This document shows, piece by piece, positions 10,536-32,750 of a DNA stretch of 33,545 bases. The DNA is from Patescibacteria group bacterium (GTDB lineage: Bacteria > Patescibacteriota > Minisyncoccia > Phycocordibacterales > Phycocordibacteraceae), in NCBI GenBank assembly GCA_018826405.1, contig JAHJZL010000048.1:1-33545 (forward strand). Reading direction: 5' to 3'. A program made the translations under genes and the position numbers. The notes under the pieces are model-generated. The model was not told the origin of the DNA. It made no database searches and saw nothing but the letters and a program-made list of their open reading frames with translations. Position 1 is the first letter of the stretch; every line of letters begins with the position of its first letter.

Positions 10536-10566
10536 CTAGGCAGGTGCCTATTTAGGAGGGAAGTAC

Positions 10567-10842
10567 GTGAAGACAAGTCAGGTGGTGGATCCTAAAGGGA
10601 GCGAGCGCTCCCTTCACAGATCCAGGCAGAAGGAGAAACGGTGGTACCGCATCATACTTCATGGCAAACCCAAGCTTCGGGTTAAGGCCGATGATGAGGA
10701 CGATCTGCTGTATGTCGCTGCCAATAAGCTGCAGGTCCCGGCCCCGCTCACCGAAACGAGCTTTCAGGAAGTTCAGGGCAAGAAAATTCTGGACGACAAC
10801 AATGTCCGGGTCTTCCCGCCGCTCCGAAGCGCCGTCCATTAA
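10567..10842 (+). CDS. hypothetical 91-aa protein (SD-bearing cassette gene A)
   Basis: AGGAGG at 10554-10559 lies 7 nt before GTG 10567. The stop is followed immediately by the terminator at 10847-10868. The region is G+C-rich. An antisense ORF is also open, so the strand is uncertain. Confidence 0.42.
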   Translation: MKTSQVVDPKGSERSLHRSRQKEKRWYRIILHGKPKLRVKADDEDDLLYVAANKLQVPAPLTETSFQEVQGKKILDDNNVRVFPPLRSAVH

Positions 10843-10846
10843 GAAC

Positions 10847-10868
10847 AAAACCGCCAGAGGCGGTTTTT
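10847..10868. terminator. bidirectional intrinsic terminator AAAACCGCC-AGA-GGCGGTTTTT
   Basis: Stem CCGCC/GGCGG flanked by an A-run and a T-run, lying between convergent ORF 10567-10842 and rpmB. Confidence 0.7.
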
Positions 10869-10871
10869 CCT

Positions 10872-11114
10872 TTATATAACTCCTGCTTTCTTGAGTGTGG
10901 CGTGTGCGCCGTTCTTCTTGATGTGTCGCATGCCCTTGGCGCTGATGTCGACGAGGATAGCCTTATCAAGCTCAGGAACGAAGATACGACGCTTCTGAAG
11001 GTTCGCTTTGCGGCGTACCTTTCCAGTTGGGTTGAATTGAGTAGCACGGGTACGGTTTGAATACCGTCCGCCGATTTGCGTACTCTTTCCGGTTACTGCG
11101 CATTCGCGTGCCAT
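10872..11114 (-). CDS. rpmB: 50S ribosomal protein L28
   Basis: MARECAVTGKSTQIGGRYSNRTRATQ..ANLQKRRIFVPE is typical L28. Confidence 0.9.
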   Translation of the reverse strand: MARECAVTGKSTQIGGRYSNRTRATQFNPTGKVRRKANLQKRRIFVPELDKAILVDISAKGMRHIKKNGAHATLKKAGVI

Positions 11115-11161
11115 AGTTCCCGCATGCTAGCATACAGAGACATATTTGAGCAACCTGACCT

Positions 11162-11791
11162 ATGTCCATGATTTTACTTACTATCGCAATCCTCATTATT
11201 TCCGTGATTATTCACGAAGTAGCGCACGGTTGGGCCGCTAACGCTCTTGGGGATCCGACGGCCAAATTACAGGGCCGTTTGTCGCTAAACCCGGTTCGCC
11301 ACATAGATCCGGTGGGATCAATCATCATTCCGGCCATCCTGGTTATTTCGCAATCGAGCTTTTTGTTTGGTTGGGCAAAGCCGGTTCCGTACAATCCCTA
11401 TAACCTAAAGAATCAACGCTGGGGGGAGGCCATTGTTGGATCAGCTGGAGTCTTAACAAACCTGTTTTTGGCAGTCGTGTTTGCGCTTATAACCCGCGCG
11501 GCAGCTGGAGCGGGGATGATGGAGTTCGCACTCCTGGCTGCCGTAGTAGTTTCAGTGAATCTCTCACTCGGAATATTTAACCTGCTCCCTATTCCGCCGC
11601 TTCATGGGTACACAGTACTCCGTGGTCTTCTTCCGTATAAGATGTCTATGGTATTTCGTGACTTTGAAGAGCGTATTGCGCGCGGAGGCATCTTCTCTTT
11701 GATCGCCATACTTTTCCTTTTCTCCTACTTTCTCTCAGCTCCGTTCGGGGCCTTCATCTCCGCAGTCTTTAAATTTCTAGTGGGAGTCTAG
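11162..11791 (+). CDS. site-2 protease family (peptidase M50) membrane metalloprotease
   Basis: HEVAHGWAA (HExxH) lies in the first TM. The protein is polytopic and hydrophobic, with the NLLPIPPLHG motif. Confidence 0.8.
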   Translation: MSMILLTIAILIISVIIHEVAHGWAANALGDPTAKLQGRLSLNPVRHIDPVGSIIIPAILVISQSSFLFGWAKPVPYNPYNLKNQRWGEAIVGSAGVLTNLFLAVVFALITRAAAGAGMMEFALLAAVVVSVNLSLGIFNLLPIPPLHGYTVLRGLLPYKMSMVFRDFEERIARGGIFSLIAILFLFSYFLSAPFGAFISAVFKFLVGV

Positions 11792-11815
11792 TATATAGAA
11801 CAATTGTTCTATATA
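11792..11815. promoter_or_regulatory. LexA operator (SOS box) overlapping the lexA promoter
   Basis: Perfect 24-nt palindrome TATATAGAAC-AATT-GTTCTATATA containing the GAAC-N4-GTTC core. It ends 8 nt before the lexA ATG. Confidence 0.75.
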
Positions 11816-11823
11816 CTGTGTGA

Positions 11824-12390
11824 ATGCAACAAGACCGACTAAGTAAGGTGCTTGCGTTTTATCGTGCGCATAAACGAATGCCGGGCATTACGGAGCTCAT
11901 GAAGCTTTTTAAGCTTAAATCAAGAAGTTCGGCTTTTTATATTGCACGTAAGTTAGTAGAGGAAGGGGTTCTTGAGAAGGACGCGACAGGAAAGCTCATT
12001 CCCGCAGCAGGACTTTTTAGCATTCCGCTTCTGGGACATATTCGTGCAGGATTTGCAGCACCTGCAGAAGAGGAGTTGGCAGATACTATTTCGCTCGGAG
12101 ACTATTTGTTAGACAACCCTAATGCGAGTTACTTGTTGCAAGTGTCTGGAGACTCTATGGAAGATGCCGGCATTCGTGAAGGAGATATGGTTGTGTTTGA
12201 GCGGACACAAGATGTTAAGCCAGGGAATATTGTTGTTGCCCTTACTGAAGACGGGTACACGTTGAAGTATTTGAGGAAGCGAGGGAAGGGTTTTTATCTC
12301 GAGGCAGCCAACAGCAAGTATCCAGACATGCACCCGCGAGAGGGGGAGATTATAGGAAGAGTTACCTCTACGTTTCGTAAGTACACATAA
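11824..12390 (+). CDS. lexA: LexA repressor (S24 peptidase)
   Basis: N-terminal winged-helix region, then VSGDSMEDAGIREGDMVVFER and a downstream LKYLRK, the Ser/Lys dyad. Confidence 0.85.
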   Translation: MQQDRLSKVLAFYRAHKRMPGITELMKLFKLKSRSSAFYIARKLVEEGVLEKDATGKLIPAAGLFSIPLLGHIRAGFAAPAEEELADTISLGDYLLDNPNASYLLQVSGDSMEDAGIREGDMVVFERTQDVKPGNIVVALTEDGYTLKYLRKRGKGFYLEAANSKYPDMHPREGEIIGRVTSTFRKYT

Positions 12391-12394
12391 AGAT

Positions 12395-13669
12395 ATGGAG
12401 CGTACGTCTTCGTATCCGCGTGCCATCCTGCATTTTGATGGAGATGCGTTTTTTGCATCAGTTGAGCAGGCGAAGGATTGGCGGCTGCGGGGGAGGCCTG
12501 TGGTTACTGGCGGGGAGCGAGGAGCGGCGACCTCTCTTTCATATGAGGCTAAGGCGCGCGGTGTTCACCGCAGCATGCCCATGCGAGATATACGGAGGAT
12601 TTGCCCGGATGTAGTTGTTGTCTCTTCTGACTACACGTCGTATTCCATATTCGCGCGTCGCATGTATGCCATTGTGCGGGAGTACACCGATGCAGTTGAG
12701 GAATACAGCATTGATGAGTGTTTTGCGGACATCACGGGGCTGGAGCAGTCTCTGGGCATGTCCTACGAAGAAATTGGAAAAGCAATTAAAGCGAAATTGG
12801 AAACAAGTCTTGGAATTACGTTTGGCGTAGGGCTTTCAGTTACTAAGACGCTTGCTAAGGTTGCGTCCAAACACAGAAAGCCTGCGGGCTTTACTACAAT
12901 TCCTGTAGAAGAGATCGAAGATTATTTACAACAAACAGAGATTTATGATGTGTGGGGATTGGGCGGAGCATCTGGTACGCACCTGCGCGCCTCTGGAGTT
13001 ACAACAGCACTTGAATACATTCAAAAAGACGAGGGATGGCTAAAGGATCATGGCATCGTAAAGCCTCAGCGAGCAACGTGGCTTGAGTTACGTGGACACT
13101 CAGTGCTTTCGCTTGGTAGTGGAGTCCGCGCTCTTCCGCACTCTGTTATGAAGACTCGCACATTTTCGCCCCCTTCTATGGATAGAGCATATATATTTGC
13201 GCAGCTCTCAAAGAATGTGGAGGCTGCGTGTGTGAAATTACGTAAGGAAGGTGTTAAGGCGCATGCGCTCAGTTTTTATTTGAAGACACAGGAGTTTACG
13301 TATCACGGAATTCAGATGGAGTTTCCAGTTGCGCTGTCTGCGCCTTCGCAACTGCTCGCACACATTCAGACAAGATTTGATGAAGTATACGTGTCAGATA
13401 TTTTATATAGAGCGAGCGGTGTAACCCTGCGCGCGCTTGTTCCAGACACGGCAGTTACACTCGACTTGTTTGGAGAGTTTGATCAGCTTTCAGAAAAACA
13501 AGAAACGTTTGTGGCTTTGGACGCATTGAATAAGAAGTTTGGGCGGCACACTGTTTTCTTGGCTTCCAGCATGCAGGCGCTTGGAACTGAGACGAAAGAG
13601 CGCTTCTTGCGATCTGGCCCGCAGTTTAAGAAGCGCATTAATATTCCGTACCTAGGAGTAGTTACATAA
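12395..13669 (+). CDS. Y-family DNA polymerase (DinB/UmuC-like)
   Basis: ILHFDGDAFFASVEQ and SIDECFADITG catalytic motifs. It lies 4 nt downstream of lexA. Confidence 0.88.
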   Translation: MERTSSYPRAILHFDGDAFFASVEQAKDWRLRGRPVVTGGERGAATSLSYEAKARGVHRSMPMRDIRRICPDVVVVSSDYTSYSIFARRMYAIVREYTDAVEEYSIDECFADITGLEQSLGMSYEEIGKAIKAKLETSLGITFGVGLSVTKTLAKVASKHRKPAGFTTIPVEEIEDYLQQTEIYDVWGLGGASGTHLRASGVTTALEYIQKDEGWLKDHGIVKPQRATWLELRGHSVLSLGSGVRALPHSVMKTRTFSPPSMDRAYIFAQLSKNVEAACVKLRKEGVKAHALSFYLKTQEFTYHGIQMEFPVALSAPSQLLAHIQTRFDEVYVSDILYRASGVTLRALVPDTAVTLDLFGEFDQLSEKQETFVALDALNKKFGRHTVFLASSMQALGTETKERFLRSGPQFKKRINIPYLGVVT

Positions 13670-13678
13670 AAAGCACCC

Positions 13679-13948
13679 CTAAAGTGGCGGGGTGCGTGAT
13701 GGGTGGCGCTCTTCATACTCAAGCATGAGAGCCCGTTCCAGGATCCTTCTTCCCTCAGGCGAATTGTGTGTGAAGGGAAGGTCCAGTTCCTTGTATTTGG
13801 TGTGGGCTATTTTTTCGGCCTCTCTGCTTTTGAAAGAGCCTCCTTCAGCGAGTGTGAGCAGTAGGTCTGCCTGATGTTCATACAGACGGCTGAGTTTTTT
13901 GACGAGCTTCTTTGCGAGAGATTCCTCGCTTGGCGAAAGTGTTGCCAT
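13679..13948 (-). CDS. hypothetical 89-aa helical protein (SD-bearing cassette gene)
   Basis: AAAGGAGG lies 8 nt before ATG 13948. A GCACCCC/GGGGTGC hairpin plus T-run overlaps the last codons. Confidence 0.55.
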   Translation of the reverse strand: MATLSPSEESLAKKLVKKLSRLYEHQADLLLTLAEGGSFKSREAEKIAHTKYKELDLPFTHNSPEGRRILERALMLEYEERHPSRTPPL

Positions 13949-14031
13949 AAGTTGTGCCTCCTTTCAGGAAGTAGACAGGTGTGTCTGGCGCCCTTATGGG
14001 TCTGTATAAATTATGTTATAAATCCATATAT

Positions 14032-14892
14032 ATGCAAGAGTCACGCATAACTCGTCTGGCGGCGTACGCACCAGCTGTATTTGGGGGAGTTGTACTGCTA
14101 GCTGTCCTAGTTGCTGTCGCAACAGCTCCGCAACTCTCTCCTGGAGCATTTCCTGCGGCTGTAGTCTCAGGTTCAGTCTTTTCACTTACGAATCAAGAGC
14201 GAGCTCAAGAGGGAGTGCCTGCACTTATACGCAACGTGAAGCTTGATCGAGCTGCGCAGTTGAAGGCAGAGGACATGGCGTCTAAGGCGTACTATGCACA
14301 CGTCTCTCCGGAAGGACTTACGCCCATGCACTTCGTTGATCGCGCGGGGTACAGCTACATCATGGTTGGAGAGAATTTAGTTGTTAACAGAGAGTCTGCT
14401 GAGGATGTGGTCAGTGCGTTTATGGGGTCATCCGGGCACCGCACAAATATCCTTCGTTCTGAGTTTACGGAAATAGGTGTTGGAGTTGCGGAAGGTACGT
14501 ATAAAGGAAGGAGTGCAATGTTTGTTGTGCAAATCTTTGCTGCGCCAAGACCAGAAGCTCCAAAGCCGCTTCCTACAAAAGTTGTCTCTATTGAAGAGAA
14601 GATAATTTTGCCAAAGAAGCCTGTACCTCTGCCAGCTCCATTGCCAGCGCTTGCTGAAGAGGTTGAGAAAGTTGTAGCGCCACTCCTAACTCCAGCACCT
14701 CCTGCAACCTCTACAGCTACAAGCACAATGCCGAACGAGAGCTTCACTTTAGCTCCAGCGTTCTCAATATCGGCTGCAAAGCCTATTGAGCTAAGTGTTC
14801 CGGTACAGGTACAGCCAACTTCTTTGAGAGACAGAGCAAAACAGTCTTTGCGTGCATGGGTACAGCAACTACAAGCACGCTTTGCGTTTTAA
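14032..14892 (+). CDS. CAP/SCP (YkwD-like) domain protein with an N-terminal TM and a Pro/Ala-rich C-terminal tail
   Basis: NQERAQEGVPAL, AQLKAEDMA, GENL, GHRTNIL and EIGVGV. ATG 14032 was chosen ahead of the TM helix. Confidence 0.75.
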   Translation: MQESRITRLAAYAPAVFGGVVLLAVLVAVATAPQLSPGAFPAAVVSGSVFSLTNQERAQEGVPALIRNVKLDRAAQLKAEDMASKAYYAHVSPEGLTPMHFVDRAGYSYIMVGENLVVNRESAEDVVSAFMGSSGHRTNILRSEFTEIGVGVAEGTYKGRSAMFVVQIFAAPRPEAPKPLPTKVVSIEEKIILPKKPVPLPAPLPALAEEVEKVVAPLLTPAPPATSTATSTMPNESFTLAPAFSISAAKPIELSVPVQVQPTSLRDRAKQSLRAWVQQLQARFAF

Positions 14893-15353
14893 GTTCTGCG
14901 GTATCGCGCAACGAGTTCTATACGCTCAAGCACGTGTCCTTCAAGAGCCTCCTCAATGTGTTCTCTGGACGATCCAGCTTCAAGATTAAGCATGGAGTCT
15001 AGGGCAAACAGTTTAAAGAAATAGCGATGCTCTGCGGGATCGTATTCAGGAGGCGGGCAGGGTCCCGTGTACTGCGCTTCTCCTCGCGTGTTCATCCCCA
15101 AGTGTCCTGGGTGTGTACCCTCTGGGATGCCTTCAGTGTCAGCCGGAATGTCGAACAGTACCCAATGTGTAAAAAGTTTTTCAGGCATCACCTCTACAGG
15201 AACATCTGGATCATCAACTATAAGTACGAAGGACTTCGTTCCCTCAGGAGGGTTTTCAATATATAGAGGCGGCGACAAGAAACGGTCTCCGTCACAGGTG
15301 TACTTTGCTGGGATAAGACCGTCCTCTTCAAATACTGGGCTGGTTAGGTTCAT
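14889..15353 (-). CDS. YbhB/YbcL-family PEBP (phosphatidylethanolamine-binding-like) protein
   Basis: CDGDRFLSPPL, VDDPDVP, HWVLFDIP, YTGPCPP and HRYFFKLFALD. Confidence 0.85.
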   Translation of the reverse strand: MNLTSPVFEEDGLIPAKYTCDGDRFLSPPLYIENPPEGTKSFVLIVDDPDVPVEVMPEKLFTHWVLFDIPADTEGIPEGTHPGHLGMNTRGEAQYTGPCPPPEYDPAEHRYFFKLFALDSMLNLEAGSSREHIEEALEGHVLERIELVARYRRT

Positions 15354-15392
15354 TCTTTAAGTGTAGCGTACGTGGAATGAATGATTGATGAG

Positions 15393-15812
15393 CTAGCGCT
15401 TTTTTCTTTTGAGCTTAAGTGTTTTTATCAAGATAGCGAGAGCACCGATTACTGAAAAGAGTATTCCGCAAAATTGCGCAATACTATCCTTCTCCAGCCA
15501 CCAGAAGCTAAACCAGGACCCACTATCTACAGGAATCTTATATATAAGAATGGCACTGAACAAAGCCCAGAAGAAGGAATAGCGGAACCAGGTCTTGAAT
15601 ACTTCTTTCTTTGTGAAGATTGCGAGGAATGCTCCGGGGAGGGCGTAGAGGGAAAAGAGCAGGGCGGGTTGGAGTAACGAAGGCCCGTAACCTTTTAGAG
15701 GTGCGTAAAATGAACACTCGGGATCTGTTACACAACCGAGCCCAAAATAGCTTATATAGGACAGGATTCCTAAAATAAGTAAGGGGAGCGACTGTAATAG
15801 CTTTATTTTCAT
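15393..15812 (-). CDS. hypothetical integral membrane protein
   Basis: About four hydrophobic helices and a basic C-terminus, KLKRKKR. The start is uncertain (15812 or 15884). Confidence 0.5.
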   Translation of the reverse strand: MKIKLLQSLPLLILGILSYISYFGLGCVTDPECSFYAPLKGYGPSLLQPALLFSLYALPGAFLAIFTKKEVFKTWFRYSFFWALFSAILIYKIPVDSGSWFSFWWLEKDSIAQFCGILFSVIGALAILIKTLKLKRKKR

Positions 15813-15929
15813 AATTCGTCCGACATGAGGGAGCAGGCCACGACTAATCTGCCAAACAGAAAATTCATATACAAACGGTAGCATGAAGAATTCACTGGGA
15901 GTTCAGATATGCACCAGTATAGGAAATGG

Positions 15930-15958
15930 TTGCATTTCCACGGCAGCTCTTATATAGT
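15930..15958 (+). promoter_or_regulatory. rpsL promoter TTGCAT-N17-TATAGT
   Basis: -35 at 15930-15935 and -10 at 15953-15958, with a 17-nt spacer. The same hexamers occur upstream of rplC. Confidence 0.5.
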
Positions 15959-15994
15959 GCTTTTAGCTCCCACGGGGGAGTTTTCATTTGCTGC

Positions 15995-16925: not shown

Positions 16926-17016
16926 ACTTATCCCTGGCAAGTACTGTCCAATGGCTTACTATTAAAAATGGGTAGCAGATCGTTGTCCGGTTGAATATTT
17001 TGTTGAGGAGGGATTG

Positions 17017-17232
17017 ATGGTTGTTTCCAAAGCAAAGCGCCTTGTTTTTGTCTGTGCTGGATGCTCGGTGCTGTTGTCAGTTCTCGTGGGCTGCGCAGGC
17101 TTTGCGGCTCATTTTTGGCCAGACCAGGCGAACAACATGCTGGTGTTTGGCGTAGCCGCCTGTACTTTGCTGGGAGCGATTGTGCTTCTGTGCGCCGCCA
17201 TTCATCTGACTTCGGCTGGCAGACTCCACTGA
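17017..17232 (+). CDS. small hydrophobic protein (~71 aa, two hydrophobic segments, possible LVGC lipobox)
   Basis: GAGGAGGG at 17005-17012. Basic N-terminus, then hydrophobic VFVCAGCSVLLSVLVGC, a second TM LVFGVAACTLLGAIVLLCAAI, and a 13-bp hairpin downstream. Confidence 0.55.
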   Translation: MVVSKAKRLVFVCAGCSVLLSVLVGCAGFAAHFWPDQANNMLVFGVAACTLLGAIVLLCAAIHLTSAGRLH

Positions 17233-17247
17233 ACCGCAAAAACAAAG

Positions 17248-17283
17248 GGGCCCGGATTGCAGCGATATGCGCAATCCGGGCCC
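17248..17283 (+). terminator. strong hairpin (13-bp perfect stem) after ORF 17017-17232
   Basis: GGGCCCGGATTGC-N10-GCAATCCGGGCCC followed by TTAAACTTT. The T-run is weak. Confidence 0.5.
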
Positions 17284-17368
17284 TTAAACTTTACATATAT
17301 AGGTTCTAGGAGTACTTTTTCAGTTCAACTGAAGTCCTTTCAGTTGGAAGTTCAAGGAGGGAAGAGAG

Positions 17369-17578
17369 ATGTCGCTTAAGAAGATGCTTGGTGTTCCGGT
17401 GCTGATTTCGGCCGGGCTCGCGCTCATCATCGCTGCCACCAATACGATCGCACATGCAGGTGGCGCGAAGACGCCCGAAGACCAGCTGGTGATCGCCTTC
17501 GGTCTCGGCGTCGGGATCTGCATCCTTTTCGGTGCTGGCTTCCTGGCTGCCTGGCCGAAGAAGCCTCAGCAGTTCTGA
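17369..17578 (+). CDS. small two-TM membrane protein (69 aa)
   Basis: AAGGAGGG lies 7 nt before the ATG. TM1 is VPVLISAGLALIIAA and TM2 is LVIAFGLGVGICILFGAGFLAA. A terminator lies downstream. Confidence 0.6.
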   Translation: MSLKKMLGVPVLISAGLALIIAATNTIAHAGGAKTPEDQLVIAFGLGVGICILFGAGFLAAWPKKPQQF

Positions 17579-17594
17579 CCAACAGAACACACAA

Positions 17595-17626
17595 GTCCGG
17601 TCGCCATGCGCGCCCGGGCTTTTTTC
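17595..17626 (+). terminator. intrinsic terminator after ORF 17369-17578
   Basis: GTCCGG..CCGGGC stem with one G-U pair, followed by TTTTTTC. Confidence 0.6.
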
Positions 17627-17697
17627 TTGCCTTTTCCTGCTGCTAAACGTATCTTATAGCTAACGCCCTGGCGGCTTTTATTTTATTTATACCTACT

Positions 17698-20537: not shown

Positions 20538-20558
20538 GACTCAAAAGTAGGAGAGGAA

Positions 20559-20587
20559 AGGGTCGGCGAGAGCCGGCTCTTTCTTTG
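20559..20587 (+). terminator. intrinsic terminator with a GAGA tetraloop
   Basis: AGGGTCGGC-GAGA-GCCGGCTCT (two G-U pairs) followed by TTCTTTG. Confidence 0.6.
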
Positions 20588-20804
20588 TGCTTAGATAATA
20601 CCTATATTTTCTTGACCTTTAGTACCTGCTCGGGTACCTTAAGAAGTAACGCGAAATACGGCGCTCTTTTCAATATTCCGCTCCACTTGGAGCCTGGGAT
20701 GGCTGAAAGGCGCTGCGCGGGTTATGCCCAACGCCTTGGTCGCCTGCTTGTCAGGCAGGCGCGGCAGCATGTTATTCAGCTAGCTACCAGTAATTTTAGA
20801 ATGT

Positions 20805-22450: not shown

Positions 22451-22478
22451 TAAAAACACTCCGATATGATGGAGTGTT
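22451..22478 (-). terminator. terminator of the minus-strand 56-aa ORF
   Basis: On the minus strand: AACACTCC-ATCATATC-GGAGTGTT followed by TTTTAT. It overlaps the stop codon. Confidence 0.6.
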
Positions 22479-22647
22479 AATCAAGAATGATTGGGTTTTG
22501 CATCAGCTGCACAGCTCCTCGGCGCATTGCTCGCTCGATCTCGCGAATGTCTCGAATGCATTCCGCGGATGGTCCGATGCGGAGTTCTGGCAGCTTGTCT
22601 GCGGGAACAGGTTTCAAATCAGAAACCAAAGGTTTTCCGATGGGCAT
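22477..22647 (-). CDS. hypothetical 56-aa protein (SD-bearing)
   Basis: GGAAGGAG lies upstream of ATG 22647. The product is MPIGKPLVSDLKPVPADKLPELRIGPSAECIRDIREIERAMRRGAVQLMQNPIILD. It has its own terminator. Confidence 0.5.
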   Translation of the reverse strand: MPIGKPLVSDLKPVPADKLPELRIGPSAECIRDIREIERAMRRGAVQLMQNPIILD

Positions 22648-22817
22648 GGTTTGTCTCCTTCCTTTAAAATAATAACACTGGAGATTAGTCTTGACTTCTG
22701 TTTTGAATAAAGCAAAGTGACAGGAATTCCTAGCCCTGTGGTTAGGTGGTCCGTTTACGGAATGACGATGTATGTTTCCTGCATCCACTTAGGAAAGCCT
22801 TGAGATGGAGAGGTCGT

Positions 22818-23318
22818 ATGACCGCTCGTAAAATAATTGCTGATGCTGTAGAACTTGCCCCTGCCCTTGAATGGGCATTGGGTAACTATCCGAACCTCGT
22901 GCTCCGCCCCAGTTTCATGTTCCGAATGATGAAGATGTTCGGGGCAATTTATGATGATGAAAACGGAGAAGGCTGGTCCGTCCCCATCATCGGGGGACCT
23001 TCATCGCAACAGATAGAGCATTCTCTATTCGCTGCTTCACCGCAGTACAGGGAGCCGCTCACGTTTAAGGTCTCTGTGGCGGAGGGGTCACTGGATATAT
23101 GCGTCCTTATTGACTGCGTGGACCGTAGTTTCTATGGGGCAGGCACCACTCCTCTGTGGCTGCTTGGCGGGGAACTCGCTTATACAGCAAATAAACGGTG
23201 CTCACCAGAGGATGCGCTCGTGCTCATCACTGGCTACGAGCCACGCCAGCGATCGGGGAACATAATCCTGACGCCGTATGTCACTGCTCTTGTTGAGAAT
23301 GGCAGAGGAAGTATCTAG
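22818..23318 (+). CDS. hypothetical 166-aa protein (SD-bearing), divergent from the 56-aa ORF
   Basis: GGAGAGG lies 4 nt before ATG 22818. A terminator lies at 23331-23356. No family was recognised. Confidence 0.55.
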   Translation: MTARKIIADAVELAPALEWALGNYPNLVLRPSFMFRMMKMFGAIYDDENGEGWSVPIIGGPSSQQIEHSLFAASPQYREPLTFKVSVAEGSLDICVLIDCVDRSFYGAGTTPLWLLGGELAYTANKRCSPEDALVLITGYEPRQRSGNIILTPYVTALVENGRGSI

Positions 23319-23330
23319 GTCTTTGTACTG

Positions 23331-23356
23331 CGGCGGTCTCCGGACCGTCGTTTTTA
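23331..23356 (+). terminator. intrinsic terminator after ORF 22818-23318
   Basis: CGGCGGTC-TCCG-GACCGTCG followed by TTTTT. Confidence 0.65.
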
Positions 23357-23409: not shown

Positions 23410-23493
23410 GTCGCAAGAACAACCTTCGGGTTGGTCCAATGGACGGGAAGCCCGCAAGGGCCTAACGCGCTATTGGTAGCGCGCTTTATTTTT
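23410..23493 (+). promoter_or_regulatory. structured 5' leader of rplC (three hairpins, the last terminator-like)
   Basis: AACC-TTCG-GGTT at 23421-23432, GCCC-GCAA-GGGC at 23450-23461, and CGCGCTA-TTGG-TAGCGCG at 23466-23483 followed by CTTTATTTTT and the ATG. Confidence 0.4.
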
Positions 23494-24108
23494 ATGAAAT
23501 TCATCCTTGCCCGCAAAGGCCGCATGACTCAAGTCTTTAACGAGGCTGGAGAAGTATTTGCAGGTACAGTTGTAACTGCAGGTCCTGTTGTTGTTACGCA
23601 GGTAAAGGATGAAAAAGGCGCAGACGGCTATTCAGCCGTACAGGTAGCGTTTGGAGAGCAGAAGGTTCAGCGCCTTGGGAAGGCTGTACTCGGACACACT
23701 AAGGGTGTGGGGTACAAGGTTCTCAAGGAATTCCGCACAAATGCTGGAGATCTTGCTGTTGGTTCACAGATAACTGCAGACACCTTCGCAGAAGGAGATG
23801 TGGTTGTTGTAACATCAACATCTAAGGGACACGGCTTTGCGGGTGTGGTTAAGCGCCATGGTTTCCATGGAGGTCGCCGCTCACACGGACAGAAGCACTC
23901 AGAGCGCGAGCCTGGATCTATTGGAGGAGGAGGTCGTGCTGGAGGTCGCGTTGCTAAAGGCATGCGCATGGGTGGCCGCATGGGTAACGACCGCGTTACT
24001 ATTAAGAATCTTAAGGTTCTTAAGGTTGATGCCGCTACTGGCCAGATGATCATCTCAGGTGCTATTCCTGGCGCTCCAGGAGCACTCGTTGAGATAACCT
24101 CAATGTAA
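23494..24108 (+). CDS. rplC: 50S ribosomal protein L3
   Basis: MKFILARKGRMTQVF.., VTSTSKGHGFAGVVKRHGF and GGRMGNDRVT. Confidence 0.95.
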   Translation: MKFILARKGRMTQVFNEAGEVFAGTVVTAGPVVVTQVKDEKGADGYSAVQVAFGEQKVQRLGKAVLGHTKGVGYKVLKEFRTNAGDLAVGSQITADTFAEGDVVVVTSTSKGHGFAGVVKRHGFHGGRRSHGQKHSEREPGSIGGGGRAGGRVAKGMRMGGRMGNDRVTIKNLKVLKVDAATGQMIISGAIPGAPGALVEITSM

Positions 24109-24118: not shown

Positions 24119-24859
24119 ATGGCTACTCCCGCAAAGAAAACCGTCGCCAAGAAGGCACCAGCTAAGAAGACTGCAGCAGCAGTATCTATGGAGGCAACTA
24201 TTTGGAACGCAAAAGGAACAAAGGCTGGAACGGTTCAGCTTCCTGAAGAACTCTTCGGACTCTCTTGGAACTCAGACCTCGTACACCAGGTTGTTGTTGG
24301 TATGCAGGCAAACGCTCGCGCAACAACTGCACACACTAAGTTCCGTGGAGAAGTATCAGGAGGAGGAAAGAAGCCTTGGAAGCAGAAAGGAACTGGACGT
24401 GCGCGTCACGGATCTAACCGCTCTCCAATTTGGAAGGGAGGAGGTGTTACTCACGGTCCACGTGCTGAGAAAGATTACTCAGTTAAGATCAACCGCAAAA
24501 TGCGTGTTGCAGCACTCGCAACCGTGCTTTCTCGCAAGCATCGTGATGGGCAGGTTATCTTCGTTGATAGCTTTGGCATCACTACTCCCTCAACAAAGGA
24601 AGCAAAGGCAATGCTCGTAGCTATTGCAAACGGAGCAGGGGTAGCAGAGCTCGCAACAAAGCGAAAGAATGCAGCGGTCGTCGCATTCGCGAAGAAGGAC
24701 ACAACGAGCGAGAAGTCTTTCCGCAACATTGGCAGCCTAACCCTAGAGGAGGTTCGCAATCTAAATCCGGTGGATTTGGTAAACAAGAAGTATCTTGTTA
24801 TTGAGAACCCAACTGATGCACTTCCTGTGCTTTCAGCGCGCCTCGCTAAGAAGGGCTAA
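24119..24859 (+). CDS. rplD: 50S ribosomal protein L4 with a Lys/Ala-rich N-terminal extension
   Basis: GGGKKPWKQKGTGRARHGS.RSPIWKGGGV core, preceded by MATPAKKTVAKKAPAKKTAAA. Confidence 0.95.
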   Translation: MATPAKKTVAKKAPAKKTAAAVSMEATIWNAKGTKAGTVQLPEELFGLSWNSDLVHQVVVGMQANARATTAHTKFRGEVSGGGKKPWKQKGTGRARHGSNRSPIWKGGGVTHGPRAEKDYSVKINRKMRVAALATVLSRKHRDGQVIFVDSFGITTPSTKEAKAMLVAIANGAGVAELATKRKNAAVVAFAKKDTTSEKSFRNIGSLTLEEVRNLNPVDLVNKKYLVIENPTDALPVLSARLAKKG

Positions 24860-25258: not shown

Positions 25259-26101
25259 ATGAAGTCTTTTAAACCAACATCAGCAAGTCGCCGCAGCATG
25301 ACCGTTGTCACGTACCGTGGCGTGCTTTCTGGTGACAAACCACACAAGCCACTTCTTTCATACAAGAAGCGCCAAGGCGGACGCAACAATGCAGGACGCA
25401 TCACGACTCGCCATCAGGGAGGAGGACACAAGCGCATGCTTCGCGATGTTGATTTCAAGTACAACAAGTTCGACATCCCTGCTCGCATTGAGACTATTGA
25501 GTACGATCCATACCGCACAGCATTTATTGCACGCACCGTATTCGCAGATGGAGAGCGCCGCTACGTAACCGTCCCTAAGGACATGAAGGTAGGCGACACA
25601 TTCATCGTGTCTGAGAAGGCTCCAATCAAGACTGGAAACCGTCTTCCTCTTGGAAAGATTCCTTCAGGAACATTCATCTACAACGTAGAGCTTCGTCCTG
25701 GTGCAGGAGCGCGTATCGCTCGTTCAGCTGGAAACTACGCTGAGATTGTTGCGCACGATGCTGGCTACGCACAGATCAAGATGCCTTCAAGCGAAGTTCG
25801 CAAGGTTATCGAGTCTGCATGGGCATCAGTTGGAGCTGTTGGAAACGAAGAGCAGCGCCTTCAGAACTATGGAAAGGCTGGAAAGAGTCGTTGGAAGGGT
25901 ATCCGCCCTACTGTTCGCGGAAATGCGATGAACCCAGTTGATCACCCACACGGAGGAGGTGAAGGAAAGCAGGGACGTGGTCTTCGCCGCGCGAAGAGTA
26001 AGTGGGGTAAGCCAACAGGCAAGGGACAGAAGACCCGTACTCCAAAGAAGTACTCAAACAAGTTTATTGTTTCTCGCCGCAAGGTTGGAAAGAAGCGATA
26101 A
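25259..26101 (+). CDS. rplB: 50S ribosomal protein L2
   Basis: GGRNN.GRIT.RHQGGGHKR and NPVDHPHGGGEG. Confidence 0.97.
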   Translation: MKSFKPTSASRRSMTVVTYRGVLSGDKPHKPLLSYKKRQGGRNNAGRITTRHQGGGHKRMLRDVDFKYNKFDIPARIETIEYDPYRTAFIARTVFADGERRYVTVPKDMKVGDTFIVSEKAPIKTGNRLPLGKIPSGTFIYNVELRPGAGARIARSAGNYAEIVAHDAGYAQIKMPSSEVRKVIESAWASVGAVGNEEQRLQNYGKAGKSRWKGIRPTVRGNAMNPVDHPHGGGEGKQGRGLRRAKSKWGKPTGKGQKTRTPKKYSNKFIVSRRKVGKKR

Positions 26102-26139: not shown

Positions 26140-26166
26140 ATAGGTCAGTTTGTATAGTGAACTGAG

Positions 26167-27051
26167 ATGAACACAGAGGAACAAACCATGACCATAAACA
26201 GCCATTCCCTTAAGGAACATGGCGTTATGAACGCTGTGTATCCTGCGCAAATTCGCAGTGGTGTACTGGAAATTCAGCGCGCCTGCGAAGCCTTTTACTC
26301 GCTCCCGCTTGAGGTTAAGCGCCTGCTTCCGTATCAGCAGTTTGATGCTGAGTCGGGAGCTGGGTACGAGTACAAGGACAACAAAAACCAGCCCGGTATC
26401 TCTCCTTCAACTCGGGATTTCAAGGAAAACCTCCACCTTAAGATGAAATATCTGGGGTGGTTGCGGGAGAAAGCAGGAGCGAGTAACGAGCCTGTTATCG
26501 TCGAGCTCGTTGAAGCGTACGCGAGTTTCATGGGACATCTTGCCCCATGGGTTAGCGAGATCGCTACGGCTATTGAGGAGCAGCACGGAATTCCGGGGCT
26601 TGCCCGTGATGTGCTCGCGAACCAAGATCTGTGGGTCCTGCGCTCGCTCCACTACTTTGGAGACCGTAACGCAGACGCAGAGCTCGCGAAGCCGCACACT
26701 GACAAGTGCTGCTTCACGCCGCACTTGTACGAGAACGACTCCGGGCTTGAGCGTCTCACGTATGAAAATGCGTGGGTGCCCATGCCAGTTGGGGAAGGCG
26801 AGACTGCCATCATCCCCGGCATGCAGTTGCAGAACATCTCGGACAACGAGCTGCGCGCAACGTGGCATCGAGTTAAGGCGAACGAGCACACTGCAGTAGC
26901 CGGCCGCTTTTCAATGGTCTGCTTCGTAACTGCGGCGAACCGTCCCTTTATCGATTCAGCTCGGGCTGGAAGGATGCAGGATCTTGGTGTCGGCAGTACG
27001 TACCGTCTGCCGCTTGAAGAAGTGAGAAAACTCTTCAAGACCTCTGAATAG
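26167..27051 (+). CDS. 2-oxoglutarate/Fe(II)-dependent oxygenase (IPNS-like 2OG-FeII_Oxy family)
   Basis: H177-T-D179 (26695-26703), H234 in TWHRV (26866-26868) and R247-F-S249 (26905-26913) match HxD...H...RxS. An alternative start is ATG 26188. Confidence 0.72.
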   Translation: MNTEEQTMTINSHSLKEHGVMNAVYPAQIRSGVLEIQRACEAFYSLPLEVKRLLPYQQFDAESGAGYEYKDNKNQPGISPSTRDFKENLHLKMKYLGWLREKAGASNEPVIVELVEAYASFMGHLAPWVSEIATAIEEQHGIPGLARDVLANQDLWVLRSLHYFGDRNADAELAKPHTDKCCFTPHLYENDSGLERLTYENAWVPMPVGEGETAIIPGMQLQNISDNELRATWHRVKANEHTAVAGRFSMVCFVTAANRPFIDSARAGRMQDLGVGSTYRLPLEEVRKLFKTSE

Positions 27052-27084: not shown

Positions 27085-27924
27085 TTAAGGAAGATAGGTA
27101 GGAAGCACTATGTCTTCAAGCTCTGCAAAGGGAATCGCAACGCTCTGGGGGCCAAGGGCATACGGGCCAACTTGGTATGGGGGGAAGAGGAGAACAAGAG
27201 TATCTCCTTCAATAACAAAGGTCTCAAAGTTGCTTGCCTTTGGCTCTGTGCCTTGCTGCAAGTAAGAAGAATCAATGCCGGTTCCAAATTTCTCTTGAAG
27301 ATTAAAACGGACAATCTCTGAAATACGCTTAAGGTATTCAGTACGAGGACTAAACAGATCCTTCAATTTAAGCTCTGTGCCTGTCTCAGCGTCAAAGACG
27401 AAGGTTCTGTAGAAAGAGTTCGGATGTGCCCCAAAGGTGTCCATGTAGAGCGTATACACGTATGAGACGGTGTGTGGGCCGAGTACTTCGTTGTACTCAA
27501 TAGCAAGCGCTTGTTTGCGGCCGTCATCGTAGCCAAGGATCTGAATGTCCTCCTTGGTGAGGCTTGCGAAGTTCCCGTCACGCTTAAAGCTCTGAATAGT
27601 TTCTTCAATAAAGTCCCGCATGCTTTCTATGGCCTTTGTGTCTGCCTGTATGCCTGCTGACACTGCGAGAGGGGTCTCAGAAGGGTATGCAGCTTCAATG
27701 TCGTAGTATTGCGCGTGCTCCCGTATTGTTTGGGGTTCGGCAGGTGGGATAACTACAGTTTCCTCAGGAGCGGACGCATAGGGCTCTGGTGCTTGGTGTG
27801 TGGCCATATACCAAAGAGACAGACCAAGAACTATAAGTATGAGCGCACCTGCGCCGAGCAGCTCTAGTTTCTGAATACGAGTGAGGGTGTGTAGGTTCCA
27901 CATATAGAGAGAAGTATAGCGCAT
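27085..27924 (-). CDS. membrane-anchored DUF4163/DUF3298-like (RsiV/PdaC-type) domain protein
   Basis: N-terminal TM LLGAGALILIVLGLSLWYM. The C-terminus LVLLFPPYQVGPYALGPQSVAIPFAELEDIV is typical of DUF3298. No SD. Confidence 0.6.
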   Translation of the reverse strand: MRYTSLYMWNLHTLTRIQKLELLGAGALILIVLGLSLWYMATHQAPEPYASAPEETVVIPPAEPQTIREHAQYYDIEAAYPSETPLAVSAGIQADTKAIESMRDFIEETIQSFKRDGNFASLTKEDIQILGYDDGRKQALAIEYNEVLGPHTVSYVYTLYMDTFGAHPNSFYRTFVFDAETGTELKLKDLFSPRTEYLKRISEIVRFNLQEKFGTGIDSSYLQQGTEPKASNFETFVIEGDTLVLLFPPYQVGPYALGPQSVAIPFAELEDIVLPTYLP

Positions 27925-27978
27925 AAAGGGAAAGGGCCGCTCGCAGGTTGCGGGCAGCCCTTGGAAGGATCTGTTGTT

Positions 27979-28125
27979 CTACAGGTAGATTTCCGGATCG
28001 TATCCGTCATCAGAGTGCCATCGCATGATGGAATCGATGCCGTCGTCCGAAATGTCTTCTTCGGGACTGGATTCTCCAGGTCCCTCAGTGTCAGCGGCAG
28101 GGAAGCCGCCCAAGTAGTTGGCCAT
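27979..28125 (-). CDS. hypothetical 48-aa highly acidic protein (below the ORF-track cutoff)
   Basis: My own translation is MANYLGGFPAADTEGPGESSPEEDISDDGIDSIMRWHSDDGYDPEIYL*. GAGGAGGAGG at 28131-28140 lies 5 nt before the ATG. Confidence 0.45.
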   Translation of the reverse strand: MANYLGGFPAADTEGPGESSPEEDISDDGIDSIMRWHSDDGYDPEIYL

Positions 28126-28163
28126 GTATTCCTCCTCCTCAACTACTTTTTCACCCTACCATG

Positions 28164-28187
28164 AAAAAAGCCATGCGCGAGCATGGC
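28164..28187 (-). terminator. intrinsic terminator of the 60-aa ORF
   Basis: On the minus strand: GCCATGC-TCGC-GCATGGC followed by TTTTTT. Confidence 0.65.
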
Positions 28188-28197
28188 CTTGCGGTAT

Positions 28198-28380
28198 TCA
28201 GGCGAAAGAGCCTACCAGTCGTCTCACGGCCGCGTGCGGGCTTTTAAAAGGCCCTCCGAACGGCTTGAGTGCTTCAGCGCCGAATTCTTCGGTCACCTCA
28301 GCGAGTGCAGCACCCACATCAGCATGCGGTACTGGCTCCTTAGATTCTCCAGGAGCCTCTTTGGGGGTGCTTGTGGTCAC
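28198..28380 (-). CDS. hypothetical 60-aa protein (SD-bearing, GTG start)
   Basis: GGGAGG lies 5 nt before GTG 28380. The product is TTSTPKEAPGESKEPVPHADVGAALAEVTEEFGAEALKPFGGPFKSPHAAVRRLVGSFA. A terminator lies downstream. Confidence 0.5.
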   Translation of the reverse strand: MTTSTPKEAPGESKEPVPHADVGAALAEVTEEFGAEALKPFGGPFKSPHAAVRRLVGSFA

Positions 28381-28430
28381 GTATACCTCCCTCTATGAGC
28401 ACTTAGGCACCCTAGCATAGAGCCAATTGT

Positions 28431-28459: not shown

Positions 28460-28497
28460 CTATCTATCCCGCCTGGCGGGCTTTCCATTGTCTATCT

Positions 28498-30560: not shown

Positions 30561-30564
30561 CCCT

Positions 30565-30807: not shown

Positions 30808-30814
30808 ATTATTT

Positions 30815-31192: not shown

Positions 31193-31203
31193 CCTCTACG
31201 TAT

Positions 31204-31545
31204 ATGTCAAAAGCAACTCAAGGAAAGCAAACTGCAAAGTTTAAAATAAAGAAAGGCGACACCGTCGTAGTAATTTCAGGCAAGGACAAAGGCAAGACTG
31301 GTTCAGTTGAGCGTGTTCTTCGTGAAGAAGCTAAGGTTGTTGTTGAGGGTGTTGCGCTTGTTAAGCGCCACAACCGCGGACTTCGTGGTCAGACTGGCCG
31401 CATTGTAGAGAAGCCACGTGCTATCTCAATCTCAAACGTTATGATTCAGGATCCTAAGGAGAAGAAGGGAACCCGTGTTAAGCGCGAGATGAAGGATGGA
31501 AAGCGCGTTCGTGTTTCAGTTAAGAGTGGCACGACACTCTCCTAA
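31204..31545 (+). CDS. rplX: 50S ribosomal protein L24
   Basis: KIKKGDTVVVISGKDKGKTG.V (KOW motif). Confidence 0.93.
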   Translation: MSKATQGKQTAKFKIKKGDTVVVISGKDKGKTGSVERVLREEAKVVVEGVALVKRHNRGLRGQTGRIVEKPRAISISNVMIQDPKEKKGTRVKREMKDGKRVRVSVKSGTTLS

Positions 31546-32093
31546 TGAATTTGCGTATGATGATGACTAAAGAAAAACAGGCAAAAGCATTTGATGCACT
31601 TAAAGAGAAGTTCGGATACACGAACCTCTTTGCAACACCACGTCTTCAGAAGATCGTTGTGTCTTCAGGTGTGGGTAAGGCAGACAAGGCTCGTAAGGCA
31701 TTTGTTGAGAAGCGCCTCGCAACCATTACAGGTCAGAAGGCATCTCCTCGCGCGTCTAAGCAGTCTATTGCGCAGTTCAAGATGCGTCAGGGCGAGATCG
31801 TTGGGTACCAGGTGACTATGCGTGGAGCTCGTATGAATGACTTCCTCGACAAGCTCATTCATATCACGCTTCCTCGTACTCGTGACTTCCGTGGACTCTC
31901 AGCGACAGCGATTGATGAGATGGGGAACCTAACGATTGGTATTAAGGACCACACTATCTTCCCAGAGACTGCAGACGAAGATCTTAAGGATGTGTTTGGA
32001 GTTGCTGTTACGCTCGTAACAACAGCAAAGAACAAGGAAGAGGCAGAGGCATTCTTCCGCTACCTTGGGTTGCCGTTTACTGCGCCTAAGTAA
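31545..32093 (+). CDS. rplE: 50S ribosomal protein L5
   Basis: PRLQKIVVSSGVG, QVTMRG.RM..FLDKLI..LPR.RDFRGL. TAATG overlap with rplX. The exact Met is uncertain. Confidence 0.94.
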   Translation: MNLRMMMTKEKQAKAFDALKEKFGYTNLFATPRLQKIVVSSGVGKADKARKAFVEKRLATITGQKASPRASKQSIAQFKMRQGEIVGYQVTMRGARMNDFLDKLIHITLPRTRDFRGLSATAIDEMGNLTIGIKDHTIFPETADEDLKDVFGVAVTLVTTAKNKEEAEAFFRYLGLPFTAPK

Positions 32094-32111
32094 AGTTGCA
32101 GAGAGGAGTAT

Positions 32112-32137
32112 AAAAGAGCCCGGAAACGGGCTCTTTT
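32112..32137 (+). terminator. intrinsic terminator after rplE
   Basis: AAAAGAGCCCG-GAAA-CGGGCTCTTTT: a 7-bp GC stem with a GNRA loop and a T-run. Confidence 0.8.
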
Positions 32138-32163
32138 GACATATAAAGGAATGCTTGTAGTAT
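32136..32163 (+). promoter_or_regulatory. candidate promoter TTGACA-N16-TAGTAT for the lipoprotein ORF
   Basis: -35 at 32136-32141 overlaps the terminator T-run. -10 at 32158-32163. Confidence 0.42.
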
Positions 32164-32214
32164 CAAAATATTGAGTTTGGTATACAACTGAACTCTCCAA
32201 CACTGGAGGTTTGA

Positions 32215-32706
32215 ATGAAAAAGATGTTCTTTGCAGGGGCTTTGGCTCTTGCGCTTGGCGCATGTGGGGCTTCGACAACGGAGCCGCAGCGCTACGAAGT
32301 CCCGGTCGATTACCGGGAACCTGTCGGAGCCGTCGTCGTGAAGCTCGGACTCAGCACGGAAGAAGTTCCGGTGTTTGAGACCATGGGCCTCAGCGAAAAC
32401 GGCACCGGCGAGGATTTTCGCTGGATGCGCGTCGTGCGTGCGGGGGAGCTGCAGAACACCTACAGTTCCGAAAACGGGTTTCACCCCGCTGACGCACGCG
32501 AAATGCTGGCGTTCTACGCCAAGCATCCGGAAGCAGTCCCCGAAAAGGGCCTGTGTGCTCCAGGCGACCAGCTGCCGCTTGGCGAAGGGATGACGGGCGT
32601 TCCTGTCATCACACAGGCGGGTCGACTGGGTGTTTTCGCTCACGGCTGCAGCAAACCCGGTCGCAGGGTCCTTGTGGTGCGTGATTTCACTCGCTCACGG
32701 CCCTGA
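32215..32706 (+). CDS. hypothetical lipoprotein (163 aa, SD-bearing, G+C-rich)
   Basis: GGAGG lies 5 nt before the ATG. Signal peptide MKKMFFAGALALALGAC with an L-G-A-C lipobox. A strong terminator lies downstream. Confidence 0.62.
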   Translation: MKKMFFAGALALALGACGASTTEPQRYEVPVDYREPVGAVVVKLGLSTEEVPVFETMGLSENGTGEDFRWMRVVRAGELQNTYSSENGFHPADAREMLAFYAKHPEAVPEKGLCAPGDQLPLGEGMTGVPVITQAGRLGVFAHGCSKPGRRVLVVRDFTRSRP

Positions 32707-32713
32707 ACAATGT

Positions 32714-32750
32714 GGTCCCCATGCCTTCCTTGGCATGGGGACCATTTTCT
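32714..32750 (+). terminator. intrinsic terminator after the lipoprotein ORF
   Basis: GGTCCCCATGCC-TTCCTT-GGCATGGGGACC: a 12-bp perfect stem followed by ATTTTCTTT. Confidence 0.8.

Follow-up and report, generated by a model that had tools for sequence, protein, structure and literature searches.

Small candidate genes with strong Shine–Dalgarno sequences in variable slots between Shine–Dalgarno-free core genes of a Patescibacteria contig

The sequence analysed, referred to as the window, is one 33,545-bp contig of a Patescibacteria metagenome-assembled genome (MAG). Its closest named genomes by elongation factor (EF) Tu are Kaiserbacteria and other Paceibacteria, at no more than 84% identity. 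Nine small open reading frames (ORFs) that had been flagged earlier, labelled c1 to c9, carry strong Shine–Dalgarno (SD) sequences in the midst of conserved genes that start without one. This contrast is confirmed in the window and replicated in its relatives. With a probability of about 0.6, the nine ORFs are mostly real, lineage-restricted genes, which would be leadered, SD-dependent, terminator-capped monocistrons from a recombining flexible gene pool. The analysis covered about 130 kb around one genomic region. The window was compared with sister species A (L081–L085 and L088), sister species B (L089 and L092), two more distant relatives (L090 and L091) and a related Kaiserbacteria locus (L001). 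The comparison set consisted of 40 core genes with curated starts.

SD strength was scored as the duplex energy, in kcal/mol, of the 20 nt upstream of the start codon against ACCUCCUUA. All nine candidates score between -7.1 and -12.7, with GGAGG or a variant of it 5–8 nt before the start. The median of the core genes is -1.15 and 39 of the 40 are weaker than -7, in agreement with the original observation that such genes start without an SD. An SD is present in 9/9 candidates as against 1/40 core genes (Fisher p = 4.9e-9). The one core gene to reach -7 is rpsL, in which GGGGAG is situated 12–13 nt before the ATG and within a hairpin; owing to this distance and folding, it is not a canonically placed SD. 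The nine motifs had been described as textbook SDs, a description that is most strained for c5 (-8.8) and c6 (-7.1, GGAGAGG), the weakest of the set.

In the intergenic sequence, 10 of the 11 copies of GGAGG sit 5–8 nt before a candidate start codon. The window contains 81 copies of GGAGG versus approximately 56 expected, mostly intragenic. Runs of GGAGG(AGG) occur within the ribosomal protein genes rplC (23869–23945), rplD (24359–24444) and rplB (25418–25425 and 25952–25959). These intragenic runs and the window-wide excess show that SD-like sequences are not avoided in highly expressed genes. The lack of a known family does not imply an SD either, since hyp478, hyp163 and a 209-aa PsbP2-like protein are family-less and start without one.

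The same division is found in the relatives. In L090 and L091, these junctions hold 13 small ORFs that belong to no family, all 13 of them with SD-like sites (-6.8 to -12.7), and nearly all of the core genes are without an SD. The core translation genes tested are also without an SD in about 30 Paceibacteria loci, whereas the same genes in controls from outside the Candidate Phyla Radiation (CPR) have medians of -5 to -7.

The core genes appear to begin translation in three other ways. A TAnnnT hexamer ends 5–9 nt before the ATG in 13 of the 23 core genes that stand first in their unit, as against a 5% background (p = 1.6e-11), a placement typical of leaderless mRNAs; the nine candidates have no such hexamer. 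Examples include tpiA, pgk, rnhA, the genes of the MBL, S24, PEBP and DUF3298 families and a 2-oxoglutarate (2OG)-Fe(II) oxygenase gene. As the hexamer lies just before the ATG and no SD is present, most core mRNAs of this CPR lineage may be leaderless, and the unit-first core genes appear to be so. The operon-internal core genes follow their predecessors at gaps of -1 to 12 nt, have no SD, and appear to be translationally coupled to the preceding gene. Finally, rpsL, rplC, rpsS and rpsN have no SD, and their starts are immediately preceded by a short G+C hairpin with a U-rich tract. The sister genomes share this arrangement, and across five genomes the stretch that precedes rpsS is almost unchanged (at most one change in 20 nt) though synonymous sites are saturated. 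It could be a device for SD-independent initiation or an autoregulatory leader. A full-text literature search turned up no paper on leaderless initiation, or on classes of SD usage, in Patescibacteria.

The candidates have promoter-like elements 20–55 nt upstream that are conserved between species. These include TTGAC-N17-TTAACT for c1 (with a leader of about 20 nt), TAGTAT for c9, and a TGnTAGGGT -10 element, conserved together with the SD, for c7 (in L088 and L089) and c8. This spacing suggests that the candidates, unlike the core genes, possess true leaders, and it is because of these leaders that they would need an SD. A separate SD-dependent translation class had been offered as one account of the nine ORFs. 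The opposition of leadered candidates to an apparently leaderless or coupled core speaks for it, as does the retention of GGAGG before c9, but it is incomplete as the sole account.

The composition of the candidates sets them apart from the core genes as well. They are richer in G+C (0.557 versus 0.493, p = 2e-5) and in G+C at third codon positions (GC3; 0.594 versus 0.466, p = 1.3e-4), as had been suspected from a hand count of 60% at 17369–17578, which proved exact. G+C at second codon positions (GC2) does not differ between candidates and core genes. The codon usage of the candidates is unlike that of both the ribosomal/EF set and the remaining core genes, with over-use of CTG, GTC, GCC, GGC and CCG and under-use of GGA, GCA and GTA. 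The relative synonymous codon usage of CTG is 2.05 in the candidates versus 0.13 in the ribosomal/EF class and 0.87 in the other core genes. The explanation of high GC3 as the codon preference of highly expressed genes was rejected: the candidates score like non-ribosomal genes, and the over-used CTG, GTC, GCC and GGC are avoided by the ribosomal/EF set.

A hairpin follows each of the nine ORFs, with a clear T-tract in eight. The claim that each ends in its own stem-loop needs qualification. The c1 terminator is bidirectional and is shared with the convergent rpmB, while the hairpin after c3 (-35 kcal/mol) has a T-tract that is weak on the plus strand and better on the minus strand. The hairpin of c2, CACCCC...GGGGTG followed by a T-run, overlaps the stop codon. 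No sequence is shared among the 3′ hairpins.

Comparison with the sister species indicates that most of the candidates encode proteins. In A and B alike, c1, c2 and c4 occupy the junctions that they occupy in the window, as do c7, c8 and c9. The ratio of non-synonymous to synonymous change (dN/dS) of these six is 0.13–0.31 in the annotated frame, and change is biased towards third positions; judged from these alignments, they are protein-coding and under purifying selection. The gene c1 is kept after the MBL-fold gene in L082 and L092 and has a dN/dS of 0.24 between the window and L082, with third positions the most different. In L082 and L092, c2 is 84–87% identical in amino acid sequence (dN/dS 0.27) and c4 is 94–97% identical (dN/dS 0.13). 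Orthologues of c7 are in the same place in L088 (72%) and L089 (47%), with a dN/dS of 0.31. Those of c8 (57–72% in L088 and L089) differ by codon position in the pattern 8/11/30, with a dN/dS of 0.13–0.16 and saturated synonymous sites. Those of c9 (72–75%), located between rplE and rpsN in L088 and L089, differ in the pattern 29/24/73, with a dN/dS of 0.18, and their lipoprotein signal is conserved. Going by their SDs, terminators and codon-position G+C pattern, c3, c5 and c6 may be coding also.

A contrary proposal is that some or all of the ORFs are non-coding G+C-rich elements, such as small RNAs, terminators or insulators, whose frames stay open as stop codons are A+T-rich. Long antisense ORFs do lie over c1, c3, c4 and c9, and gene callers at times chose the opposite strand. 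Moreover, the nucleotide conservation of c1, c2 and c4 exceeds that of neighbouring enzyme genes, and comparative evidence for c3, c5 and c6 is absent. It is nonetheless difficult to reconcile non-coding elements with the third-position bias and dN/dS of six of the nine, with SDs at 5–8 nt in all nine, or with the conserved hydrophobic helices and lipobox. The antisense ORFs match no family, and a search of Rfam at gathering thresholds returned no RNA family in the window or five sister loci. The proposal is most improbable. In the sister contigs, gene callers took the antisense strand for c1, c9 and an 83-aa gene that occupies the slot of c3.

Searches of Pfam, NCBIfam, PHROGs and PADLOC gave nothing above the curated cut-offs for any candidate, consistent with the earlier view that they belong to no recognised family. 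The matches of c3, c4 and c9 are sub-threshold only and of the hydrophobic-segment or signal-peptide type. Exact NCBI matches exist for seven of the nine, all termed “hypothetical protein”, with the c7 entry coming solely from a sister MAG. The exact c1 protein is present in one Logan record only, and that of c3 has no match in a 15-billion-protein collection. Homologues outside the genus were sought for c2, c6 and c9, the only three searched, and none was found among 1.8–5.8 billion proteins. The sole other representative of c2 among 1.84 billion proteins is its sister orthologue, c6 has no homologue besides itself among 5.8 billion, and the homologues of c9 are within the genus only. Viral-contig scans with c1, c2, c6 and c9 yielded only a weak match to the c9 signal peptide, and the 83-aa slot protein had no match when metagenomes were scanned with it.

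The junctions which hold the candidates are variable in content. The same slot holds non-homologous content in different relatives at rpsG|fusA, rpsJ|rplC, rplB|rpsS, rplE|rpsN and PEBP|rpsL (across the window, L082, L088–L092 and L001). The distribution of candidates is patchy, in that c3, c5 and c6 are missing from the sister species and their slots are filled by other genes. At rpsG|fusA, the window has c3, and A and B (L082 and L092) have a different SD-led 83-aa membrane ORF with a GC3 of 0.87–0.88. At rpsJ|rplC, the window has c5, which is confined to the three MAGs of the window species, together with c6. At the same junction, A has a 109-aa gene and adh_short, and B has bPH_2, a 125-aa gene and adh_short. 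L090 and L091 carry small SD-led orphans here, and unrelated SD-led orphans at rplE|rpsN and rplB|rpsS. In L001, the rpsJ|rplC slot (11694–15347) contains NAMPT and NadM-Nudix genes for nicotinamide adenine dinucleotide salvage, with strong SDs, in addition to small SD-led ORFs.

Larger genes also enter such slots. The PEBP|rpsL slot holds hyp163 alone in the window (15354–15994), a 1001-aa LCAT-domain gene in addition in A (L082, 4939–8364), and an NgoFVII-type restriction enzyme and a DNA methylase instead in B (L092, 6330–8404). The 2OG-Fe(II) oxygenase gene (26167–27051), between rplB and the DUF3298 gene, is found in the window species only; it has a GC3 of 0.63, a leaderless-type promoter and no SD. 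The sister species have about 330 nt without a confident gene at this site. None of the larger accessory genes (the restriction-modification system, LCAT, adh_short, bPH_2 and the 2OG oxygenase) has an SD. Their promoters are of the leaderless type and they are low in G+C, with the exception of the 2OG oxygenase (G+C 0.546, GC3 0.627). As these larger acquired genes are without an SD, the SD-led class is a specific accessory subset as opposed to a general mark of acquired DNA.

Divergence along the region is mosaic. Ordinary genes differ by approximately 50% at third positions among all three species. The 83-aa gene differs by only 0.02 at third positions between A (L082/L088) and B (L092/L089), against 0.22–0.5 for the flanking genes, whose synonymous sites are saturated. 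For c1, the third-position difference is 0.14 between the window and A, and the B allele has only 53% protein identity; for c9, it is 0.20 between A and B and 0.45–0.50 to the window. Third-position divergence is uniformly low for c2 and c4. This mosaic fits recent exchange or replacement of cassettes. The SDs, GC3 and codon usage of the nine ORFs, along with their size, narrow distribution and turnover, support the view that they form a distinct gene population.

Horizontally acquired mini-cassettes had also been suggested. Atypical codons, slot turnover and mosaic divergence agree with this, but no homologues outside the genus were found for c2, c6 or c9, and no repeats or mobility genes. 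This account, too, is partly right but incomplete. A shared mobile element (a miniature inverted-repeat transposable element, attC or target duplications) was rejected, since an all-versus-all comparison of six gaps gave only chance matches of 10–15 nt. The units are not linked by shared repeats, by sites resembling attC or by mobility genes, and there is no integrase in the window. Of the marks by which horizontal acquisition is recognised, a donor lineage was not found for c2, c6 or c9, nor a mobile-element context for the units.

One form of this idea is that the genes came recently from SD-using donors of higher G+C (phage, plasmid or host bacterium), in which case the SDs and codons would be unused relics of the donor. 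The atypical G+C-rich codons and patchy distribution would be expected, and the NAMPT and NadM-Nudix genes with strong SDs at the L001 rpsJ–rplC junction form a cassette typical of horizontal transfer. The loss of the anti-SD reported in many Parcubacteria (PMC9297842) also speaks for it. Yet no donor homologue was found for c2, c6 or c9 in 1.8–5.8 billion proteins, and neither PHROGs nor the viral-contig scans with c1, c2, c6 and c9 gave a match beyond the c9 signal peptide. Furthermore, c8 and c9 are long resident, as judged by synonymous saturation, yet have kept the GGAGG spacing and high GC3 in three species. Other clearly acquired slot genes are SD-less, with leaderless-type promoters and mostly low G+C. 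Recent transfer with relic signals is consequently held to be rather unlikely.

The conservation of the SDs bears upon their function. In a small number of loci, the SD is retained in c7 and c8 across three species with saturated synonymous sites, and in c9 with a diverged leader; the GGAGG of c9 stays 5 nt from the start in relatives despite this divergence and a change of the start from ATG to GTG. This retention points to selection acting on the SD, from which a working anti-SD would follow. Tsurumaki et al. 2022 (RNA 28:1041; PMC9297842) did not detect the CCTCCT anti-SD motif in about half of Parcubacteria, and the Parcubacteria without a detected anti-SD overlap lineages lacking uL1 (PMC9297842). 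It is conceivable, though clearly improbable, that the 16S rRNA of this genus also lacks the anti-SD tail and that the orphan GGAGG is read by something else, or belongs to a conditional regulon of a special ribosome state. Were this so, the small-protein pool would use an initiation channel apart from the rest of the proteome and the SD-less core would be explained.

A related proposal envisages a specialised regulon, where the anti-SD exists but, as in Bacteroidetes, is normally idle or masked, and where efficient translation of the SD-led orphans would be tied to one state of the ribosome. Flavobacteria retain a strong SD on rpsU for autoregulation, which provides an analogy. The all-or-none use of SDs between the two classes and the conservation of the SDs would suit such a regulon, as would the highly conserved leaders of 20–55 nt; the 124-nt region upstream of c4, for example, is 97% identical to the sister species. 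On the other hand, no common function or regulatory motif beyond the SD unites the candidates, ribosome heterogeneity is untouched by the present data, and a need for SDs on leadered mRNAs is a simpler account of the same data. A regulon of this kind is very unlikely.

A further proposal treats c3, c4 and the 83-aa gene as membrane peptides akin to type I toxins, under the control of antisense RNAs and maintained selfishly, which would account for their turnover and strong nucleotide conservation. These proteins of 69–83 aa have two hydrophobic segments, and c3 and c4 are small hydrophobic peptides in the sense used for such toxins. A strong SD, a conserved structured leader and low synonymous divergence also agree, as does the hairpin at 17248–17283, whose T-tract is better on the minus strand, as would be the case for an RNA antisense to the c4 leader. 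However, the antisense promoter and RNA are only putative, no known toxin family is matched, most type I toxins are smaller than these proteins, and the proposal covers at most two of the nine candidates. It is highly improbable. In its own right, the hairpin at 17248–17283 could either terminate transcription in both directions or mark where such an antisense RNA ends, and the c4 leader (within 17248–17368) includes the palindrome CAGTTCAACTG. A paralogous origin of c3 and c4 was considered and rejected, as no relationship between them is detectable.

Under the favoured explanation, each unit would consist of a sigma-70-like -10 element, a leader of 20–55 nt, an SD 5–8 nt from the start, a small ORF and an intrinsic terminator. 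The units would encode two-helix membrane proteins, a lipoprotein, and small proteins that are either acidic or basic. In this Kaiserbacteria-like Patescibacterium, they would occupy fixed slots that separate one core transcription unit from the next, and the core genes would initiate free of SDs by way of leaderless mRNAs, coupling across gaps of 1–12 nt, or a hairpin and U-rich leader. The units would be drawn from a flexible small-gene pool that has a G+C-rich codon usage of its own and whose members are gained, lost, replaced and exchanged between sister species. The exchange may proceed by homologous recombination anchored in the highly conserved ribosomal flanks, which would explain the location of the units.

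Several observations weigh against this explanation. About ten chance coincidences of SD, start and ORF arise within core genes, and for this reason an SD by itself is not decisive; it is the conjunction with position, terminator and conservation that counts. The ORFs c3, c5 and c6 are found in the window species only and are without comparative coding support. For c1, c2 and c4, synonymous divergence could be low on account of constraint at the RNA level or from an antisense strand, and not of exchange. The AlphaFold2 models are of low confidence, with a predicted local distance difference test score of 32 for c6 (single sequence) and 41 for c9 (three-sequence alignment). Lastly, if the genus were among the Parcubacteria without an anti-SD (PMC9297842), the proposed SD-dependent initiation would be unworkable.

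If the favoured explanation holds, one genome would use two initiation signals side by side, with an SD-free core and SDs on small genes of fast turnover. The locus allows the continued use of SD pairing in these lineages to be put to a concrete test. It may also supply a candidate pool of lineage-specific surface or small proteins with a possible bearing on the episymbiotic way of life, and its conserved ribosomal-cluster slots would be natural sites for the study of gene flow between CPR species. It further serves as a warning about strand and start errors made by gene callers on small SD-led genes.

Table 1. Coordinates of the nine candidate units and of sites upstream of core genes in the window. 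Energies are SD duplex energies in kcal/mol; pI, isoelectric point.
Feature	Position	Strand	SD	Start	Stop	Hairpin or terminator	Product and remarks
c1	10554–10867	+	AGGAGGG 10554–10560	GTG 10567	10842	10847–10867	91 aa, basic, pI 9.8; -10.7
c2	13668–13961	-	AAGGAGG (GGAGG 13957–13961)	ATG 13948	13679	~13668–13693	89 aa; -11.6
c3	17004–17283	+	GAGGAGGG 17004–17011	ATG 17017 (or TTG 17014)	17232	17248–17283	71 aa, two hydrophobic segments (hydropathy); -12.7
c4	17354–17628	+	AAGGAGGG 17354–17361	ATG 17369	17578	~17593–17628	69 aa, two hydrophobic segments; GC3 0.73; -11.9
c5	22455–22662	-	GGAAGGAG 22655–22662	ATG 22647	22477	22455–22478	56 aa; -8.8
c6	22807–23356	+	GGAGAGG (weak) 22807–22813	ATG 22818	23318	23330–23351 and T-run	166 aa; -7.1
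c7	27923–28140	-	GAGGAGGAGG 28131–28140	ATG 28125	27979	~27923–27962	48 aa, acidic, pI 4.1; -12.2
c8	28161–28391	-	GGGAGG 28386–28391	GTG 28380	28198	~28161–28190	60 aa, acidic; -12.7
c9	32205–32752	+	GGAGG 32205–32209	ATG 32215	32706	~32712–32752	163 aa, predicted lipoprotein, signal peptide ending LGAC (sisters LSAC or LCAC); G+C 0.61; -10.0
TAnnnT upstream sites	3620–3640, 5106–5126, 8522–8542, 9625–9645, 11804–11824, 26147–26167						before unit-first core genes
TAnnnT upstream sites	15353–15373, 27903–27923	-					unit-first core genes
Hairpin and U-rich tract, rpsL	15965–15994						directly before start
Hairpin and U-rich tract, rplC	23466–23493						directly before start
Hairpin and U-rich tract, rpsS	28468–28497						directly before start
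Hairpin and U-rich tract, rpsN	32801–32824						directly before start

By Pfam, the window opens with pilin-like genes, tpiA, a GDSL lipase gene, pgk, a HIT-family gene, recJ, rnhA, sod and the MBL-fold gene. These are followed by rpmB, an M50 peptidase gene, an S24/umuD-like gene with umuC, a CAP-domain gene and PEBP, and then by the str/S10/spc ribosomal cluster in the order rpsL–rpsG, fusA, tuf–rpsJ, rplC-D-W-B, rpsS to rplE and rpsN–rpsH, which is interrupted at several junctions. The earlier inventory of core genes had overlooked rpmB (10872–11114, minus strand) and the HIT-family gene (6256–6714, minus strand). A mis-assembly or assembly chimera, a check called for at the outset, was rejected because independent assemblies show an identical architecture: the arrangement is the same in three MAGs of the window species and in independent assemblies of the sister species, with contigs of up to 608 kb. 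The majority of the candidates are identical across the three MAGs.

Several other features of the region were noted. The longest-ORF starts of the CAP-domain gene (13981–14892) and the DUF3298 gene (27085–27924, minus strand) are probably wrong, as comparison with the sisters and the position of the -10 element favour 14032 and 27903, respectively. The S24 (UmuD/LexA-like) and Y-family polymerase (umuC-like) genes form an operon with a 4-nt gap (11824–13669) that is retained in this reduced genome and kept in both sister species. The PsbP2-like gene between fusA and tuf is absent from L090 and L091, which carry an acidic ORF of 48–49 aa shortly downstream of fusA with a moderate SD-like site (-8.3). 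The 267-nt gap 5′ of tuf (20538–20804) is 81% conserved, and no convincing ORF, tRNA or Rfam match was found in it. The intergenic stretches 11115–11161, 11792–11823, 13949–13995 and 17245–17368 are 97–100% identical to L082, although neighbouring genes differ by about 50% at third codon positions; nearly all non-coding sequence hence appears to be strongly constrained.

Among known systems, integron gene cassettes resemble the units in being small, mostly orphan ORFs that are each followed by an imperfect palindrome. They differ in that no integrase, array or shared attC-like sequence is present here, the palindromes are followed by T-runs, and the units have promoters of their own. Integron membership is defined by an array beside intI with attC, whereas these units are single or paired and scattered. 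Replacement genomic islets and ORFans (orphan ORFs) are alike in their short, fast-evolving, restricted and atypical genes, their slot turnover and their signs of recombination. Classic ORFans are usually A+T-richer, whereas those described here are G+C-richer than the host, are situated inside the str/S10/spc cluster, and have an initiation signal unlike that of the host core.

With regard to initiation, the loss of the anti-SD in Parcubacteria (PMC9297842) concerns the same broad lineage and fits the SD-less core translation genes in the roughly 30 Paceibacteria loci. That study describes no SD-bearing genes, and the conserved SDs found here either argue that the genus still reads SDs or pose a paradox. 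Bacteroidetes are alike in having an SD-less core, ribosomal proteins included, and a strong SD on a small minority of genes such as rpsU. Their exceptions are conserved genes with an autoregulatory logic, whereas those of the window are fast-evolving orphans in variable slots. Actinobacteria and Deinococcus-Thermus (“group C” of GeneMarkS-2) are alike in that a -10 element lies directly upstream of many starts beside leadered SD genes. In those phyla, ordinary conserved genes and genes inside operons often carry an SD too, whereas none of the approximately 40 core genes uses one here, operon-internal ribosomal genes included; in contrast to both, the SD of the window region is confined to small lineage-restricted genes.

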